A stretch of 5,684 nucleotides of DNA, from the IMG/VR virus record IMGVR_UViG_2693429642_000007, positions 1 through 5,684 of that record. The stretch is one strand, 5' to 3'. Under the pieces are notes generated by a model. The model searched no databases and had not been told where the DNA came from. It worked only from the letters and a program-made list of their open reading frames with translations. The DNA is from a virus (lineage: Duplodnaviria; Heunggongvirae; Uroviricota; Caudoviricetes). Positions 3 through 5,684 of the stretch are shown here, in pieces. Position numbers and translations under genes: made by a program. Within the stretch, counting starts at the first letter, position 1, and every line of letters starts with the position of its first letter.

Positions 3-218
3 ATACAGCGCGTATACGATGAAAATCACAAGGTATACGGTGTGCGTAAAGTCTGGCGTCAGTTGTTACGGGAAGGAATCAGGGTGGCCAGATGTACAGT
101 GGCACGTCTCATGGCGGTTATGGGACTTGCCGGTGTTCTCCGGGGTAAAAAGGTCCGTACGACCATCAGCCGGAAAGCCGTTGCCGCAGGCGACCGCGTA
201 AACCGTCAGTTCGTGGCC
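3..218 (+). mobile_element. Truncated IS3-family transposase OrfB fragment (N-terminal region only; enters from left edge, similarity ends near 218)
   Basis: Frame-3 translation from position 3 reads IQRVYDENHKVYGVRKVWRQLLREGIRVARCTVARLMAVMGLAGVLRGKKVRTTISRKAVAAGDRVNRQFVA, which fits the conserved N-terminal pattern of IS3-family OrfB transposases (YG.RK.W..L.REGI.V.R..V.RLM...GL.G..RGK...TT). After codon 216-218 the translation (SFAYTMVARS...) no longer resembles transposase, where I would expect the catalytic-domain continuation. No terminal inverted repeat is visible in the window. The listed ORF 42..341 is this fragment read through into unrelated sequence. Confidence 0.55.
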
Positions 219-505
219 TCATTCGCGTACACAATGGTCGCTCGCTCCAGATTGCGTCTGTATTCTTTCTGCTGCCAGATCACGTCCTGTGCCATGAACT
301 TAACTGGCTTAGCGTCTTCTATGCGCTCAGGCGTTTCGTGAGTACCTTTAGCCTGAATCTGCGCTCTGCTTAGAGTAGGGCGGTGTAATACTTCTGAACT
401 TATTGCTTCTTCGCGGGCCAGTACGCCGTTAGCTAATGCCTTTACCTTTAAACGCTCACGACGACGAGAACGTGAATTGCCTTTGAACTGAGTTCTGCGT
501 GTCAT
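206..505 (-). CDS. N: N-like transcription antitermination protein (99 aa), with arginine-rich motif near the N-terminus
   Basis: ORF MTRRTQFKGNSRSRRRERLKVKALANGVL... has an arginine-rich motif at residues ~9-25 resembling the boxB-binding ARM of lambdoid N proteins (P22 N type, GNAKTRRHERRRK, from memory). Size is N-like (~100 aa). AGGAGG lies 5 nt upstream of the ATG (plus-strand cctcct at 511-516). It sits downstream of a boxB hairpin and the candidate pL, in the position of N in lambda. The last ~4 codons and the stop (206-218) lie inside the IS-derived sequence. Confidence 0.6.
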   Translation of the reverse strand: MTRRTQFKGNSRSRRRERLKVKALANGVLAREEAISSEVLHRPTLSRAQIQAKGTHETPERIEDAKPVKFMAQDVIWQQKEYRRNLERATIVYANEATN

Positions 506-670
506 ATAGACCTCCTGATGAACTTTGGTGGTGTGGTAGGTGGGAGACCCATTTCGACCTGTTTCGGCCTACTTCAATTCGGCAATAGTCCCGCAGGCCT
601 CGCCGCTTTACGTGCGACATATTCCCGTCCATGAACCCTTCACCACACCCCAAAGTTCACTTTGGTTATT

Positions 671-685
671 GCGCTTTGTCAGCGC
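671..685 (-). promoter_or_regulatory. nutL boxB RNA hairpin (GCGCU-GACAA-AGCGC on the leftward transcript)
   Basis: Plus strand reads GCGCTTTGTCAGCGC, so the minus-strand transcript reads GCGCUGACAAAGCGC: a 5-bp stem with a GACAA pentaloop, matching my recollection of the P22-type boxB. It lies ~165 nt upstream of the N start and ~60 nt downstream of the candidate pL start. A convincing boxA was not found. Confidence 0.55.
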
Positions 686-753
686 CGTAGATTCATATTC
701 GAATCGTTGTATATTCACCGCCCTGGTGAGTAGTGCGTCCTGCTGATGGGTGA

Positions 754-797
754 ACTTTATCGGAATGATAAATTAATGGCAATAGCAAAATGATAAA
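754..797 (-). promoter_or_regulatory. Candidate pL promoter with OL operators (17-bp palindromic sites, consensus TTTATC-N5-GATAAA)
   Basis: On the minus strand: -35 TTGCCA (plus 777-782), 17-nt spacer, -10 TAAAGT (plus 754-759). A perfect palindromic 17-mer TTTATCGGAATGATAAA (756-772) overlaps the spacer and -10. A second site AATAGCAAAATGATAAA (781-797) lies just upstream of the -35. The layout is identical to the pR/OR1 arrangement at 3252-3280. A possible weaker third site is at 853-869. Confidence 0.45.
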
Positions 798-973
798 TTC
801 TCTTGGTTTTCAAATATCGTATTGATTCTTATGGTGTTTTATTTTGTTGTAGGAATTCGACAGGATAAATAAAGAGATTTGAGGGAGATCTGGATTGCGT
901 TGTTTAGCAAGTTGTATCTATCAGTTTTTCAATAAATACAATCGATTATGTGTTTTTAGGTGGGCGAACGTGG

Positions 974-1002
974 GGCAAAGAAAACCCGGCGCTGAGGCCG
1001 GG
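974..1002 (-). terminator. Rho-independent terminator ending the leftward cI-higB-higA-secB operon
   Basis: Inverted repeat CCCGGC-gctgag-GCCGGG at 985-1002. On the minus strand the hairpin is followed by TTTTCTTTG (plus-strand A-rich 976-984). It lies 10 nt downstream of the secB-like stop codon (1012-1014). Confidence 0.5.
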
Positions 1003-1011
1003 TGGGGAATT

Positions 1012-1416
1012 TCACTTATTACTGTTCGTTTCCATGGGATTGGCCAAGAAATCAAAATAAGGCAGAGTGAACCTACCAAGGTTTGACATGAGGATAATTT
1101 GCTCGGCATATGTTTTTATATAGGGATATGCCATATTGGGAGCAATGGACCTTACCTCATATGATTTTGCCATTTCATGAGAAAAATCATCTTCTGACCG
1201 GAAGTCAAAGTCGTATGTGATGTCCATCTCAAGCCTGCCTTCAATAGTTACGGAGGCAAAATATCTCACTCTAAATAGCTTTGAATCCTTCACATTAGTG
1301 TAAAGTTCATTATTTAGATTAACGGTTGTTTTTATGGATTTTTTTGCTGTTGAATCGCCTTCTAGCCGTGTCATAACCAAGCGTTCAACTTTTTTGCTAA
1401 TGAGTTCAATTTTCAT
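1012..1416 (-). CDS. SecB-like chaperone (134 aa), third gene of a toxin-antitoxin-chaperone (TAC) module
   Basis: The C-terminal half ...SIAPNMAYPYIKTYAEQIILMSNLGRFTLPYFDFLANP aligns by eye with E. coli SecB ...[36 protein letters not shown] (PN..[FY]PY.[RK]....G.F..L.L...FD). The N-terminal region has a beta-strand-like pattern comparable to SecB. Its start ATG (1414-1416) overlaps the stop of the upstream antitoxin gene as ATGA, indicating translational coupling. Confidence 0.65.
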   Translation of the reverse strand: MKIELISKKVERLVMTRLEGDSTAKKSIKTTVNLNNELYTNVKDSKLFRVRYFASVTIEGRLEMDITYDFDFRSEDDFSHEMAKSYEVRSIAPNMAYPYIKTYAEQIILMSNLGRFTLPYFDFLANPMETNSNK

Positions 1417-2069
1417 GGTAATAATAAGTAATTTCCGTCAGAAGTCATTTCGTCATTCAGGTTGCTAGCCGCTGTGAAACTTGATGACAAGTTACTTATC
1501 AAAGAAAAAACATTCCGTTTTTCTTTGCATTTGCCGTTACCCCTTACTGCGCTGAACAACATTTTTGAAAAGTAAGATTCTGTAGCCTTTTCAGCGAAAT
1601 AAGCAGAAGGTGATGTGACGGCTGACTCACACCGAGCAATGACGCTAGTCATGGCTGTTTCTTCTTCCTCTGCGTCAACTAGGCTCCATTCAATTGCGCT
1701 CATATCTTGAATTAAGATATCTGCAGGAATTCCAAGTCCGTCATGTAGTCTACGGATCATTGAAAGACTTAATGGACGCTTACGATTTAAGACCTCAGAT
1801 ACTTTAGATGCTGAGCCAATGTATTGTTTCATATCGGCATAAGAGAGGCCTTGTTGATCCATACGGAACTTGATTGCTTCTATGGGATCTGGCTTGTCCA
1901 TAGGGAACTCGCGTGACTCATAGTGCTCGATAAGCAAGCCTAGTAGTTCAAACTCATCAAAATCTTCAGTTCCAGGTTGTAAATCACTAGACGCAAGTTC
2001 AATGAGCCTTTCCATAGCTGCAGCATGCTCTTCACTATTTTTAATGATGCGCCAGCTAGTTCGATTCAT
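1413..2069 (-). CDS. higA: HigA-like HTH antitoxin (218 aa) with ~95-aa C-terminal extension (candidate chaperone-addiction region)
   Basis: Residues ~1-120 (...EAIKFRMDQQGLSYADMKQYIGSASKVSEVLNRKRPLSLSMIRRLHDGLGIPADILIQD) resemble E. coli HigA/YgjM-type antitoxins (HTH_XRE near the C-terminus of the conserved part). Canonical HigA ends about there, whereas this ORF continues ~95 aa (acidic linker DAEEEETAM, then a Ser/Phe-rich tail). Its start overlaps the higB stop as ATGA (2066-2069) and its stop overlaps the secB-like start as ATGA. Confidence 0.7.
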   Translation of the reverse strand: MNRTSWRIIKNSEEHAAAMERLIELASSDLQPGTEDFDEFELLGLLIEHYESREFPMDKPDPIEAIKFRMDQQGLSYADMKQYIGSASKVSEVLNRKRPLSLSMIRRLHDGLGIPADILIQDMSAIEWSLVDAEEEETAMTSVIARCESAVTSPSAYFAEKATESYFSKMLFSAVRGNGKCKEKRNVFSLISNLSSSFTAASNLNDEMTSDGNYLLLP

Positions 2070-2353
2070 TTAAGCCTCCACTTGTCGTACTCTGCATGAG
2101 TTCCAACTCTTTCAACTATGACCATTCCTGCCTGGTAAACAACTTGGACAACGAGCCGATAGTTATTGCCTTTTATATTAAAAATTACCCTGTTGTTAGG
2201 AAGGAAGTCGGCAGAATTAAATCTATTCCGTATGTCTTGAGTCGTTTTCCAGTTTTCTCTTATCACTTCATCATACCAAGAGTCTAAAGCCCCCTTGGCC
2301 TGATTGTGCTTCTGGCTAAAACTGTGAAGCTTCTCTACGTTTAAGACCTTCAT
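2066..2353 (-). CDS. higB: HigB-like toxin (RelE/ParE superfamily mRNA interferase, 95 aa)
   Basis: MKVLNVEKLHSFSQKHNQAKGALDSWYDEVIRENWKTTQDIRNRFNSADFLPNNRVIFNIKGNNYRLVVQVVYQAGMVIVERVGTHAEYDKWRLK aligns by eye along its length with E. coli HigB (YgjN): ...FNVGGNELRVVAMVFF...IREVMTHKEYD. The toxin-first gene order is typical of higBA. Confidence 0.75.
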   Translation of the reverse strand: MKVLNVEKLHSFSQKHNQAKGALDSWYDEVIRENWKTTQDIRNRFNSADFLPNNRVIFNIKGNNYRLVVQVVYQAGMVIVERVGTHAEYDKWRLK

Positions 2354-2375
2354 AATCCGATTTTGTTCCCTCTTT

Positions 2376-2407
2376 GGGAATTATAGATTCATTTCCCATA
2401 AAGGGAA
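2376..2407 (-). promoter_or_regulatory. Candidate internal promoter/operator for the higB-higA-secB module
   Basis: A perfect TATAAT on the minus strand (plus-strand attata at 2380-2385) lies ~27 nt upstream of the higB ATG. The -35 is poor. A perfect inverted repeat TTCCC-ATAAA-GGGAA (2393-2407) sits adjacent, with a further GGGAA half-site at 2376-2380; this is a plausible antitoxin operator. Confidence 0.3.
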
Positions 2408-2489
2408 TCTGTATTTTTATCCAGAAATGCTATGTACATCACCCAAACGTCTCTTCAGGCCACTGGTTACCAGCTATGTGACGATGAAG

Positions 2490-3194
2490 TCACGAACTTT
2501 TCAGCCACTCCCTTGCCTCGATGTCATCCAGATGGCGAGATTGCTTCAGAATACCAGCTACATACTCCACCTTTGCTACTTGATGATAAGGCAACGTTAT
2601 AGGCCTGTGATCCTGGTTAATGCTTGTAAATTGGTATTCTCCATCTCTGTCATAGCCAAGAACCTTAATCATGTTGTGTCCTTCAACGGTTCTGACAAAC
2701 ACCTCATCACCCGGGAATACTTTGGTGTTAGGCTCAATGAGTACATATTCTCCTGATTTTATTCTGGGCCACATGCTGTCTCCTTTCACACGAAGACCAA
2801 AGGCATCTGGATCATCGCTATAAATTTTGAGCCACCCATCGCGCTCTTCGGTCATCTCGATGGCACCATCAACACCAAGAATTGCCTCACCAACCACGCG
2901 CACTAACCCTTTTCTTACCTGACCGACAAAAGTTAAAGAATCTGAGAATGATGCAATTGGTGTTACATCATGTACCAAATCAAGCCACCCATTAGGTAAC
3001 CCAAGCGCGGCTTCAAATTTTCTTGCTAGTTTATCCCCTATGTTTCGAGTGCTTTTTTCACCGGAGACTTGCGTGAGTTGAGAAGGGCTAACCCCAAGCT
3101 TATCGGCAAAGCTTGCATTAGTGTTACCCGCGATTTTTTTATGCTCATCTAGCAAAAACGCCAGATTCGATTTGCGAATATCTTTGTTTTCCAT
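2490..3194 (-). CDS. cI: CI-type prophage repressor (N-terminal HTH, C-terminal S24/LexA-like peptidase domain; 234 aa)
   Basis: The N-terminus has an HTH (...FADKLGVSPSQLTQVSGEK...). The C-terminal domain has the S24 signature GDSMWP (Ser nucleophile) and a Lys ~37 residues later (MIKVLG). It is divergently arranged from the cro-like gene across an operator-rich intergenic region. A GAGGG RBS lies upstream of the ATG. Confidence 0.85.
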   Translation of the reverse strand: MENKDIRKSNLAFLLDEHKKIAGNTNASFADKLGVSPSQLTQVSGEKSTRNIGDKLARKFEAALGLPNGWLDLVHDVTPIASFSDSLTFVGQVRKGLVRVVGEAILGVDGAIEMTEERDGWLKIYSDDPDAFGLRVKGDSMWPRIKSGEYVLIEPNTKVFPGDEVFVRTVEGHNMIKVLGYDRDGEYQFTSINQDHRPITLPYHQVAKVEYVAGILKQSRHLDDIEAREWLKSS

Positions 3195-3307
3195 CTCACA
3201 ATTTTCCCTCTATTTAGCAAATGGATAAATACGCAATATGATAAATTTACATTGCGGTTGATTTATCAAAATGGTAAAGTTGTTCTGTGTGATAAACGGA
3301 GGCACTA
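3195..3307. promoter_or_regulatory. Immunity switch region: OR operators with divergent pRM (leftward) and pR (rightward)
   Basis: Repeated 17-mers share the GATAAA / TTTATC half-site: TTTAGCAAATGGATAAA (3213-3229), ATACGCAATATGATAAA (3229-3245, weak left half) and TTTATCAAAATGGTAAA (3263-3279). Candidate pR: -35 TTGCGG (3252-3257), 17-nt spacer, -10 TAAAGT (3275-3280), with the operator overlapping the -10 exactly as at pL. The cro RBS GGAGG is at 3298-3302. The pRM hexamers could not be placed confidently. Confidence 0.5.
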
Positions 3308-3541
3308 ATGAGTAATGAACTACTACGCTGGCGAAAAGAGGCTTCTAGCGAGGAATGGAAGCGACTCGCCGCATTAGCGAAAACTTCAGTTGGCTATCTT
3401 GACCAGATTGCATATGGATTTCGAAGAGCTTCCCCTGATAAAGCGAATGCAATCGAAGAAGCTACTCGTAATTTCACGGGTTATAAACCTGTGAAAAAGG
3501 AAAACCTAGTGTTCGTATCGCGTAGAGCATCGGCTGCATAA
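3308..3541 (+). CDS. cro: Cro-like small HTH regulator (77 aa), first gene of the rightward early operon
   Basis: Called by position: divergent from cI, immediately downstream of the OR/pR candidate, with GGAGG 5 nt upstream of the ATG. The protein is small and basic with an HTH-like stretch (LAALAKTSVGYLDQIAYG). It does not resemble lambda or P22 Cro from memory, so family assignment is uncertain. Confidence 0.55.
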   Translation: MSNELLRWRKEASSEEWKRLAALAKTSVGYLDQIAYGFRRASPDKANAIEEATRNFTGYKPVKKENLVFVSRRASAA

Positions 3542-3548
3542 GTAACAC

Positions 3549-3594
3549 CGCTATTTTCACAATGGACATTCGTCCTACGTCGCTGACAAAGCGA
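3549..3594 (+). promoter_or_regulatory. nutR: boxB hairpin UCGCU-GACAA-AGCGA (3580-3594) with a possible boxA-like CGCTATTT (3549-3556)
   Basis: TCGCTGACAAAGCGA has a 5-bp stem and the same GACAA loop as the nutL boxB at 671-685. It lies just downstream of the cro stop, as nutR does in lambdoid phages. The boxA assignment is weak: one mismatch to CGCTCTTT and an unusually long 24-nt spacer. Confidence 0.5.
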
Positions 3595-3623
3595 GTCCCA
3601 ATATATCTGACCAACTAAGGCCA

Positions 3624-3641
3624 TATGCGTTTCCACGCATA
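3624..3641 (+). terminator. Hairpin between cro and cII (possible tR1-like pause or terminator structure)
   Basis: TATGCGT-ttcc-ACGCATA is a perfect 7-bp stem with a 4-nt loop, followed by CCTTTCAAC, which is only weakly U-rich. tR1 is rho-dependent in lambda, so function is uncertain. Confidence 0.2.
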
Positions 3642-3679
3642 CCTTTCAACTAACTATTCACTATTGGAAATATTAAGAA

Positions 3680-4045
3680 ATGACACAAACAAGTTACAGC
3701 AAACTATCACAGCGTGACGTTGATCGCGCAGAAACAGATTTACTCATCAACCTATCAACGCTTACCCAGCGCGGTCTGGCAAAGATGATTGGCTGTCATG
3801 AATCGAAGATAAGCAGAACGGACTGGAGACTTACCCAGCGCGGTCTGGCAAAGATGATTGGCTGTCATGAATCGAAGATAAGCAGAACGGACTGGAGATT
3901 TATTGCTTCGGTCTTGTGTGCTTTCGGAATGGCATCAGACATCAGTCCGATTAGCAGGGCTTTTAAGTATGCGCTTGCTGAAATCACAAAGAAAAAACGC
4001 CCGGCGGCAACCGAGCGTTCTGAACAAATCCAGATGGAATTCTGA
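3680..4045 (+). CDS. cII: CII-like lysogeny-establishment activator (121 aa) containing an internal 23-aa tandem duplication
   Basis: The C-terminus ...[17 protein letters not shown] matches the lambda CII C-terminus as I recall it. The N-terminal and HTH regions are divergent from lambda. Without the duplication the length would be 98 aa, against 97 for lambda CII. Position after cro and nutR is as expected. Confidence 0.8.
3761..3898 (+). repeat. Perfect 69-bp direct tandem duplication (2 copies: 3761-3829 and 3830-3898) inside cII, in frame
   Basis: Both copies read cttacccagcgcggtctggcaaagatgattggctgtcatgaatcgaagataagcagaacggactggaga with no mismatch (checked base by base). This duplicates the peptide [23 protein letters not shown]. 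Confidence 0.95.
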
Positions 4046-4077: not shown

Positions 4078-4224
4078 ATGACAAAACAACTCAGTCCTTA
4101 CCAGGACAAAATTCACAAACACATACTACGTGATCGCTTCCTGTCCAGCTTCAAGCAGCCTGGTCGATTCCGGGCTGGGTTGGAAAAAGTGAAGCTGATG
4201 CAGAAGGAGAAAGGTCATGAGTAA
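4078..4224 (+). CDS. Small hypothetical protein (48 aa, basic) between cII and O
   Basis: ATG at 4078 is preceded by AGGAG (4068-4072) with 5-nt spacing. It reads [48 protein letters not shown], with stop TAA at 4222-4224 overlapping the O start by 8 nt. It is absent from the supplied ORF track, presumably because it is below the length cutoff. The start context matches the lambda O start region (caggagt.attATGACAAA) as I recall it. Confidence 0.35.
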
Positions 4225-5122
4225 TCTTGCAACCGTAACACATTTAAGGCCTTCACAACGGCCTGTGGAGCGTCGTGTGGCAGAAGTTGAAGATGGTTAT
4301 ACCCGTCTTGCAAATGCCCTGTATGAAGAGCTTATCGGCGCAGATTTAACGAAAAATCAGAGCAAGGTTGCCCACGCCATATGCCGTAAAACATACGGCT
4401 ACGGTAAAAAGATGGATCGCATCTCTGATAGTCAGTTAGCTCAAATTACCAGGCTGCCAAGACAGAAGGTAAACAAGGCCAAGAATGAGCTTATCGCGAT
4501 GAAGGTTATCCTTCGCGAAGGCCAGCAAATCGGGCCTAACAAGAACATCGAGGAATGGCAAATCGAAGGGTGTCACTACTCTGGTGATAATGTCACTGCA
4601 TTGGTGACAAAAAGTGTCACCAAAACGGTGACAGCGCTGTCACCAAAACAGGGACACACAAAAGAAACTATTACAAAAGAAAAAAGAAAAGATTATTCGT
4701 CCGAGAATTCTGGCGAATCCTCTGACCAGCCAGAAAACGATCTTTCTGTGGTTAAACCGGATGCTGCAATTCAGAGCGGCAGCAAGTGGGGAACAGCAGA
4801 AGACCTGACCGCCGCAGAGTGGATGTTTGACATGGTGAAGACCATCGCACCATCAGCCAGAAAACCGAATTTTGCAGGGTGGGCTAACGATATCCGCCTG
4901 ATGCGTGAACGTGACGGACGTAACCACCGCGATATGTGTGTGCTTTTCCGCTGGGCCTGCCAGGACAACTTCTGGTCCGGTAACGTGCTGAGTCCGGCCA
5001 AACTCCGCGACAAGTGGACCCAGCTCGAAATCAACCGTAACAAGCAACAGGCAGGCGTGACAGCCAGCAAACCAAAACCCGACCTGACAAACACTGACTG
5101 GATTTACGGGGTGGATTTATGA
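4217..5122 (+). CDS. O: O-like replication initiator protein (301 aa); divergent N-terminal iteron-binding domain, lambda-like C-terminal domain
   Basis: The N-terminus aligns with lambda O (..EDGYTRLAN.. vs ..DDGYARLSN.., GADLTK, RKTYG, MDRI.DSQL, GPNKNI.EW). The C-terminal ~110 aa ([101 protein letters not shown]) is essentially the lambda O C-terminus from memory. RBS AAGGAGAAAGG precedes the ATG. The stop overlaps the P start as ATGA. Confidence 0.9.
4571..4698. promoter_or_regulatory. Origin of replication within O: four 19-bp iterons (TGTCAC-N7-GTGACA type) followed by an AT-rich region
   Basis: Iterons are tgtcactactctggtgata (4571-4589), tgtcactgcattggtgaca (4591-4609), tgtcaccaaaacggtgaca (4615-4633) and tgtcaccaaaacagggaca (4638-4656). 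An AT-rich tract aaaagaaactattacaaaagaaaaaagaaaagattatt (~4657-4698) follows. This is the same architecture as the lambda ori (four iterons plus AT-rich region inside O), but with a different iteron sequence from the lambda TCCCTC...GAGGGA type. Confidence 0.7.
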
Positions 5123-5684
5123 AAAACATCGCCGCACAGATGGTTAACTTTGACCGTGAGCAGATGCGTCGGATCGCCAACAACATGCCGGAACAGTACG
5201 ACGAAAAGCCGCAGGTACAACAGGTAGCGCAGATCATCAACGGTGTGTTCAGCCAGTTACTGGCAACTTTCCCGGCGAGTCTGGCTAACCGGGACCAGAA
5301 CGAACTGAATGAAATCCGCCGCCAGTGGGTTCTGGCTTTCCGGGAAAACGGGATCACCTCGATGGAACAGGTTAACGCAGGAATGCGCGTAGCCCGTCGG
5401 CAGAATCGACCATTTCTTCCATCACCCGGGCAGTTTGTTGCATGGTGCCGGGAAGAAGCATCCGTTATCGCCGAACTGCCAAACGTCAGCGAGCTGGTTG
5501 ATATGGTTTACGAGTATTACCGGAAGCGTGGCCTGTATCCGGATGCAGAGTCTTATCCGTGGAAATCAAACGCGCACTACTGGCTGGTTACCAACCTGTA
5601 CCAGAACATGCGGGCCAATGCGCTGACTGACGCGGAATTACGGCGCAAGGCTGCCGATGAACTGACCTGTATGATAGCACGAAT
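5119..5684 (+). CDS. P: P-like replication protein (DnaB helicase loader), 5' partial: continues beyond the window end
   Basis: The ATG at 5119 overlaps the O stop. The translation [115 protein letters not shown]... closely matches lambda P as I recall it. The frame stays open to the window end (no stop), which is why it is missing from the ORF track. Confidence 0.9.
   Translation, partial: MKNIAAQMVNFDREQMRRIANNMPEQYDEKPQVQQVAQIINGVFSQLLATFPASLANRDQNELNEIRRQWVLAFRENGITSMEQVNAGMRVARRQNRPFLPSPGQFVAWCREEASVIAELPNVSELVDMVYEYYRKRGLYPDAESYPWKSNAHYWLVTNLYQNMRANALTDAELRRKAADELTCMIAR

Follow-up and report, generated by a model that had tools for sequence, protein, structure and literature searches.

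The CII proteins of phages lambda and 21 (PF05269; structures 1XWR, 1ZS4, and 8IGR) are the closest described relatives of the protein considered here. Lambda CII is an asymmetric tetramer in which one monomer per dimer reads one half of a direct repeat (PMC2995052), and the CII family members examined carry one helix-turn-helix (HTH) motif per subunit in a protein of about 91–100 aa. In the window, which is the whole 5,684-nucleotide stretch of DNA analyzed and constitutes the entire draft contig CDQY01000435.1 of GCA_000941535.1, a cII-family gene shares with these relatives the family signature, a C-terminal tail identical to that of lambda CII, a position between cro and O, and an oop-type antisense terminator on the 3′ side; a TTGC-N6-TTGT pattern, a candidate CII-binding repeat, lies on its 5′ side. 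In contrast to them, it encodes a protein of 121 aa with two consecutive HTHs. The allele belongs to a single clone of Escherichia coli and is a mutant version of a well-known gene.

The cII gene and its immunity region

The genes of the window follow the order N, a three-gene insert, cI (− strand), cro (+ strand), cII (+ strand), a DUF2740 ORF, O, and P, and the neighborhood is a standard lambdoid immunity region. The place of cII between cro and O/P, as expected of a CII-family gene, is common to the O26:H11 11368 prophage and phage 21. The nearest complete relatives are O26:H11 prophages, with 98.9% identity over window positions 218–3833; they carry a single-copy cII, in which the duplicated unit and its flanks are base-for-base identical to those of the window. 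Judged from these comparisons, the prophage is of the phage-21/O26 lambdoid type. The cI, cro, O, and P genes look intact by their ORFs and by comparison. The main features are as follows:

1–217, + strand: interior piece of an IS3 transposase gene of the IS629 family, joined to N at codon 96/97 with an overlap of at most 1 bp
206–505, − strand: antiterminator N gene, truncated, with 96 of 127 native codons followed by three foreign codons and a stop (O26 comparison)
2490–3194, − strand: intact cI-type repressor with a Peptidase_S24 match, as long (234 aa) as its O26:H11 11368 counterpart (ORF, Pfam)
3308–3541, + strand: cro-position gene, 77 aa, length as in O26:H11 11368 (ORF, comparison)
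3580–3594, + strand: boxB-like hairpin TCGCTGACAAAGCGA in the nutR region between cro and cII (hairpin search)
3680–4045, + strand: cII-family gene with the duplication, 121 aa, RefSeq WP_044695199.1, single-copy form 98 aa (ORF, Pfam, exact protein match, 1xwr alignment)
3689–3702, − strand: candidate CII-binding repeat TTGCTGTAACTTGT (TTGC-N6-TTGT) over cII codons 4–8, placed only by the position of the lambda pRE −35
3761–3829, + strand: copy 1 of the 69-bp unit, cII codons 28–50, a complete HTH
3830–3898, + strand: copy 2 of the 69-bp unit, cII codons 51–73, 100% identical to copy 1
3994–4021, − strand: oop-type antisense terminator hairpin over the cII 3′ end; the phage 21 record has oop RNA at the equivalent place

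The initial annotation had described a perfect, in-frame 69-bp tandem duplication in a cII homologue, and base identity, codon phase, and the Pfam assignment all bear this description out. Direct comparison of positions 3761–3829 with 3830–3898 found 69 of 69 bases to be the same, and a repeat search also gave 100%; such a match cannot be due to chance. Tandem Repeats Finder reported a period of 69 with 2.1 copies and a score of 277 in the window, the array reaching position 3902 because the TTTA that follows copy 2 resembles the CTTA at which the unit starts. The unit begins at the first base of cII codon 28 and the repeat keeps the codon phase, so that residues 28–50 of the product recur as residues 51–73 and the protein has 121 aa rather than 98. 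At the new junction, between positions 3829 and 3830, GGAGA is followed by CTTACC, and AGAACGGACTGGAGACTTACCCAGCGCGGT is the sequence that would mark reads crossing it. Exact microhomology is absent from the junction (a G precedes copy 1, against the unit-final A, and a T follows copy 2, against the unit-initial C), and the sole likeness at the unit ends is a TTA offset by one base after copy 2, plus trivial 7-mers. The search for inverted repeats or quasi-palindromes around the duplication that could explain its origin returned none of note.

The membership of the gene product in the CII family is clear. The 121-aa protein matches PF05269 with an E value of 3e-42 (143 bits against a cut-off of 21.3) in two stretches, the first ending near residue 50 and the second aligning residues 51–115 with profile positions 24–91; the reconstructed 98-aa protein matches in one stretch, over profile positions 1–91. 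Lambda CII (PDB 1xwr) aligns with the 121-aa protein at an E value of 4.7e-08, query residues 55–121 against chain residues 28–97, and the alignments of the lambda CII structures 1xwr, 1zpq, and 8igr run over copy 2 and the C-terminal part. By the alignments, the repeated segment is equivalent to lambda CII residues 24–48, approximately, and includes both HTH helices, with helix limits taken from the alignment to 1xwr. The parts of the 121-aa protein are ordered as helix 1, HTH, HTH, oligomerization helix, and the C-terminal degradation tail, which targets the protein to FtsH. Alignment confirmed the earlier proposal that the duplicated residues correspond to the KSQISRWKRDW part of lambda CII. 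The accompanying proposal that the recognition helix is covered was right as regards duplication of the HTH but too narrow, since the alignments assign the whole motif, both helices, to the repeated segment. Phage 21 CII and the single-copy form share 88% identity, with residues 16–76 the same and the HTH 100% identical, and viable phages such as phage 21 have the single-copy form with this identical HTH. With lambda CII the single-copy form shares 43% identity over 88 residues, and the last 16 residues are identical.

The pRE-like site, the oop terminator, and nutR/tR1 all lie outside positions 3761–3898, and therefore the duplication alters the protein alone. In CII-family phages a TTGC-N6-TTGC direct repeat is expected at the −35 of a leftward promoter that overlaps the 5′ end of cII, and TTGCTGTAACTTGT sits at that place. 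The one-mismatch occurrence of the pattern is no rarer than chance in the window, and its assignment is by position only. The loop of the boxB-like hairpin TCGCTGACAAAGCGA is GACAA, presumably of the P22 type, which agrees with an N protein whose N terminus is rich in arginine (GNSRSRRRERLK). In the phage 21 record, nutR and tR1 are placed within the cro–cII interval.

Several further observations concern the mosaic structure of the region. Positions 3960–4045, with the 3′ end of cII and the oop terminator, are of the lambda type, and the O26 relative differs there; on sequence comparison cII contains a mosaic joint, much as phage 21 cII does at its annotated "border lambda immunity". A 48-aa DUF2740 ORF (4078–4224, + strand) lies between cII and O. 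Positions 4089–4643, comprising the DUF2740 ORF and the 5′ part of O, gave no megablast match to the O26 relative, so that the two prophages differ in the allele of the replication-origin module. The rexAB position, between N and cI, is occupied by three genes with overlapping stop and start codons (1012–2353, − strand), a trio also present in the O26:H11 11368 prophage. They encode a 95-aa HigB-like protein matching PADLOC PD-Lambda-2_A (E 2.8e-41), a 218-aa HTH protein matching the N-terminal third only of PD-Lambda-2_B (E 5.6e-50, residues 5–126 against profile positions 4–125 of 402), and a 134-aa protein matching PD-T4-9_C (E 2.4e-10). One possibility is that the trio represents an anti-phage system carried by prophages, in shortened or recombined form. 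Two short imperfect tandem repeats, each of about 1.9 copies, lie where the 134-aa and 218-aa genes meet (period 21 at 1383–1422 and period 16 at 1426–1455).

Distribution of the duplicated and single-copy alleles

A cII of this type occurs in 1,902 of 5,426 complete E. coli genomes, where the listed best matches span 292–300 bp against the 366-bp query, are joined from two overlapping pieces, and show no duplication. In the same genomes, a 68-nt probe centered on the junction gave two-piece matches to single-copy genes only. Among 50,697 phage records, 314 of which matched, the listed best matches span 285–300 bp and are single-copy; they include phage 21, DE3, HK629, ev017, and many Stx phages. 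A 30-nt junction probe was absent from the GTDB species representatives and the JGI metagenomes, and in IMG/VR it matched the clone's own contig only. An allele-specific 60-mer, used to look for the context of the exact 98-aa allele, matched the clone's own IMG/VR contig and nothing in metagenomes or GTDB representatives. At the protein level, 188 CII-family clusters (thousands of sequences) held no HTH duplication, the longer members being C-terminal frameshifts or read-throughs, fusions to neighboring genes, or N-terminal extensions. When 1.84 billion cluster representatives were scanned exhaustively with HMMER, 35 relatives came up, with zero internal repeats. The exact 98-aa single-copy allele is present in other E. 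coli drafts.

The comparison with homologous cII genes to which the initial annotation had pointed is therefore uniform, as none of the genes or proteins covered (genomes, phages, 188 clusters, and 35 distant relatives) is naturally of the two-repeat form. WP_044695199.1 represents a mutant CII and not a natural length variant, and the duplication could be used to mark the E. coli lineage that carries it.

Probable origin of the duplication and its predicted effect on CII

On the whole, the duplication is probably a real, recent, and clone-specific product of slippage or unequal exchange, which probably weakened or abolished CII and is presumably neutral to the lysogen. In one step, replication slippage or unequal sister-strand exchange would have doubled 23 codons in the resident prophage, without useful microhomology. 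A recent event had already been suggested in the initial annotation, and it agrees with the zero differences between the copies and the confinement of the allele to one near-identical clone. Repeats of less than about 200 bp are expected to form and to be lost independently of RecA, in association with replication (PMC7063769). For this 69-bp repeat, RecA-independent slippage is accordingly the expected route of loss, in preference to the RecA-dependent deletion that was one of two routes suggested earlier (PMC7063769).

At the protein level, only one of the two HTHs would pack natively against helix 1, and the other would form a 23-residue insertion, either before the native HTH or between it and the tetramerization helix. 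The CII tetramer has to be precise and asymmetric in order to place two HTHs on the direct repeat; because the extra HTH would perturb this arrangement, activation of pRE-type promoters is probably reduced or lost. The function of cII is confined to the establishment of lysogeny. The gene is dispensable for maintenance of a prophage, in which cI repression keeps it silent, and the mutation would therefore be neutral to the lysogen and could drift to fixation in the clone.

The chief alternative, which we regard as unlikely though deserving of attention, is that the duplication is tolerated, with one HTH in its native place and the other looping out as a surface hairpin, so that CII tetramerizes and activates pRE, perhaps more weakly. 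Consistent with this, the ORF is open and in frame, every invariant HTH residue is kept in both copies, and the C-terminal tail and the oligomerization segment are untouched. Engineered tandem helix duplications in T4 lysozyme reportedly fold with one copy extruded, which would offer a model for such an outcome. The allele also persisted while the clone gained a nucleotide substitution and a rearrangement; however, a gene that a repressed prophage keeps silent can persist in a lysogen whether or not its product functions. The conservation of the family speaks against tolerance. An alignment of 37 homologues from many Enterobacterales (65–96% identity) contains zero indels across residues 7–100, and 12 of the 23 positions within the duplicated segment are invariant, so that both the length and the sequence of CII are constrained in residues 7–100; the thousands of CII-family sequences without an insertion there point the same way. 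The CII family has accordingly not tolerated length change in this segment over evolutionary time, and reduced or lost CII activity appears the likelier outcome. Structure prediction was of low confidence throughout and uninformative about folding. AlphaFold2 gave a mean pLDDT of 46 for the 121-aa protein (38-sequence alignment) and a likewise low 51 when the control, the single-copy protein, was modeled from the same homologues, and Foldseek searches of the PDB with these low-confidence models gave no significant match for either.

The initial annotation had also allowed for an assembly or amplification artefact. In that case there would be one true copy, and a shared short-read pipeline would have doubled the segment where contigs broke in the conserved cII. 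This we consider improbable. The exact 121-aa protein was found on six contigs in the collection searched, from at least five distinct GenBank E. coli draft assemblies, and the two-copy cII is of identical sequence in all five. These assemblies are GCA_000941535.1, GCA_000939215.1, GCA_000936105.1, GCA_000947375.1, and GCA_000936775.1. The carrier contigs are 99.96–100% identical to the window where they overlap, and their starts and ends differ. At position 5519 the window has A and sister contigs L002 and L006 have G, a Cys-to-Tyr change in the replication protein P ORF and the sole difference in about 5 kb between the window and these contigs. Sister contig L005 has one mismatch of its own against the window, and the left flank of sister contig L004 (CCBY01000284.1) runs into native N where the window has the IS629 fragment. 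Because the substitution at 5519 and the L004 left flank differ among carriers, the duplication was inherited as the clone diversified, which argues against both a one-off assembly error and rapid flickering of the repeat. The marks of an artefact, such as occurrence in a single assembly, at a contig end, or at a scaffold gap, are likewise missing, with the junction sitting 348–3814 bases inside the carrier contigs, which have no N runs.

Some circumstances nevertheless favor an artefact. All carriers are fragmented short-read drafts; their GCA/WGS accession series are neighboring, as though they came from a single submission series, and they may have passed through one pipeline. In some E. 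coli, the central part of cII is present as many as five to six times per genome, and where it is repeated among co-resident lambdoid prophages contigs may break in the gene. The junction is found in none of the 5,426 complete E. coli genomes searched, and no long-read genome with the duplicated allele came to light among them. The IMG/VR record is a copy of one of the clone's NCBI contigs, re-imported from there, and P0002–P0004, partial proteins in the cluster of the 121-aa protein, add no independent support because these C-terminal fragments do not include the junction. Against this, at least five assemblies share the junction with different contig boundaries and small sequence differences, and it lies well inside every contig. 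De Bruijn assemblers should be unable to write a junction with k-mers absent from the reads, a 69-bp overlap does not equal k−1 for an odd k as used in Velvet, and the unit edges do not fall at the nearest allele differences from the O26 cII. A one-off assembly error is thus an unlikely source of the duplication in light of the sequences compared, and the artefact first suspected has lost most of its force. Short-read assembly establishes the junction, and it fixes a copy number of exactly two only weakly.

A reversible genetic switch, also proposed in the initial annotation, would turn CII function and re-lysogenization on and off as the repeat went from one copy to two and back. RecA-independent slippage can indeed cause short, perfect tandem repeats to be lost or expanded (PMC7063769), and the exact single-copy allele exists in the other drafts mentioned above. 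Yet the pattern expected of a contingency locus did not appear: the copy number is exactly two in all five clone assemblies despite their other changes and so does not vary among close isolates, and independent lineages show no recurrence, whether in genomes, phages, IMG/VR, GTDB, metagenomes, or CII proteins. Known contingency loci are built differently from a lone two-copy 69-bp repeat. With a unit of 23 codons inside the coding region, its length divisible by 3, any gain or loss of copies leaves the frame as it is, and promoter spacing is not affected. A benefit to the host is also hard to see, with cII silent in the lysogen and N broken in this contig. The proposal of a switch is therefore unsupported, and we give it very little credence. 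Equally far-fetched is a two-HTH CII acting as a functional neomorph, with altered spacing, a new target, or a dominant-negative effect on the CII of superinfecting phage-21-type phages, or a toggling repeat that would make lysogeny establishment heritable but reversible.

Prophage state and comparison with known systems

A second lesion in the same contig, the truncation of N with the IS629 fragment, was absent from the initial annotation. The full-length N of 127 aa is open in the O26:H11 relative; phage annotations call the same protein antitermination protein N, and its coverage reaches 80% or more in 175 phage records. In the window, the C-terminal 31 residues of N and the sequence beyond are displaced. 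The IS629 piece at 1–217 is internal to the transposase gene and is not an IS end, and the fusion, as read from the sequence, is a rearrangement scar rather than a simple IS insertion. L004 keeps native N for at least 39 more bases and has no N/IS629 junction, so that the rearrangement is polymorphic in the clone and either postdates the cII duplication or, at the least, is unconnected with it. Because the truncation is not common to all carriers, decay of the prophage cannot be assumed for the time at which the duplication arose. In lambda, tR1 and later terminators are no longer read through efficiently once N function is lost. The prophage in this contig is probably defective and not viable, whatever the state of cII, and its cII is probably poorly expressed even after derepression. 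In the O26:H11 11368 genome (NC_013361.1; L007 3905–4288), RefSeq marks only the last 23 N codons, as an incomplete "regulator" pseudogene, and the 127-aa ORF is open; the pseudogene call looks like an annotation gap, not a lesion.

The preferred reading of a probably inactivating, neutral duplication can be set beside three known situations. Decay of E. coli prophages proceeds by IS insertions, deletions, and point lesions. The truncation of N by an IS629 fragment in the same contig resembles this process, and a lesion in cII, a gene useless to the resident prophage, fits the usual pattern. The cII case differs in that the reading frame is kept, cI, cro, O, and P look intact, and one sister isolate lacks the N/IS629 junction. 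The duplication also resembles spontaneous slippage duplications in being a perfect head-to-tail repeat whose length is a multiple of 3 and which can arise and revert independently of RecA (PMC7063769), with undiverged copies and an occurrence in one clone only. It differs from them in that its ends have no microhomology, so that the initiating misalignment is not evident, and in that neither reversion nor expansion is seen among the available assemblies. The event is of an ordinary kind, one more lesion in the prophage of one clone, and carries little weight for phage biology.

The third comparison concerns the protein. As in the engineered T4 lysozymes, a complete helical element is duplicated in tandem, and the same question arises of which copy sits natively. 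The lysozymes are monomeric enzymes with solved structures, whereas CII is an obligate asymmetric tetramer, and the element duplicated in it is the DNA-reading motif. The allele thereby constitutes a natural experiment on a tetrameric HTH activator with a duplicated DNA-binding motif.
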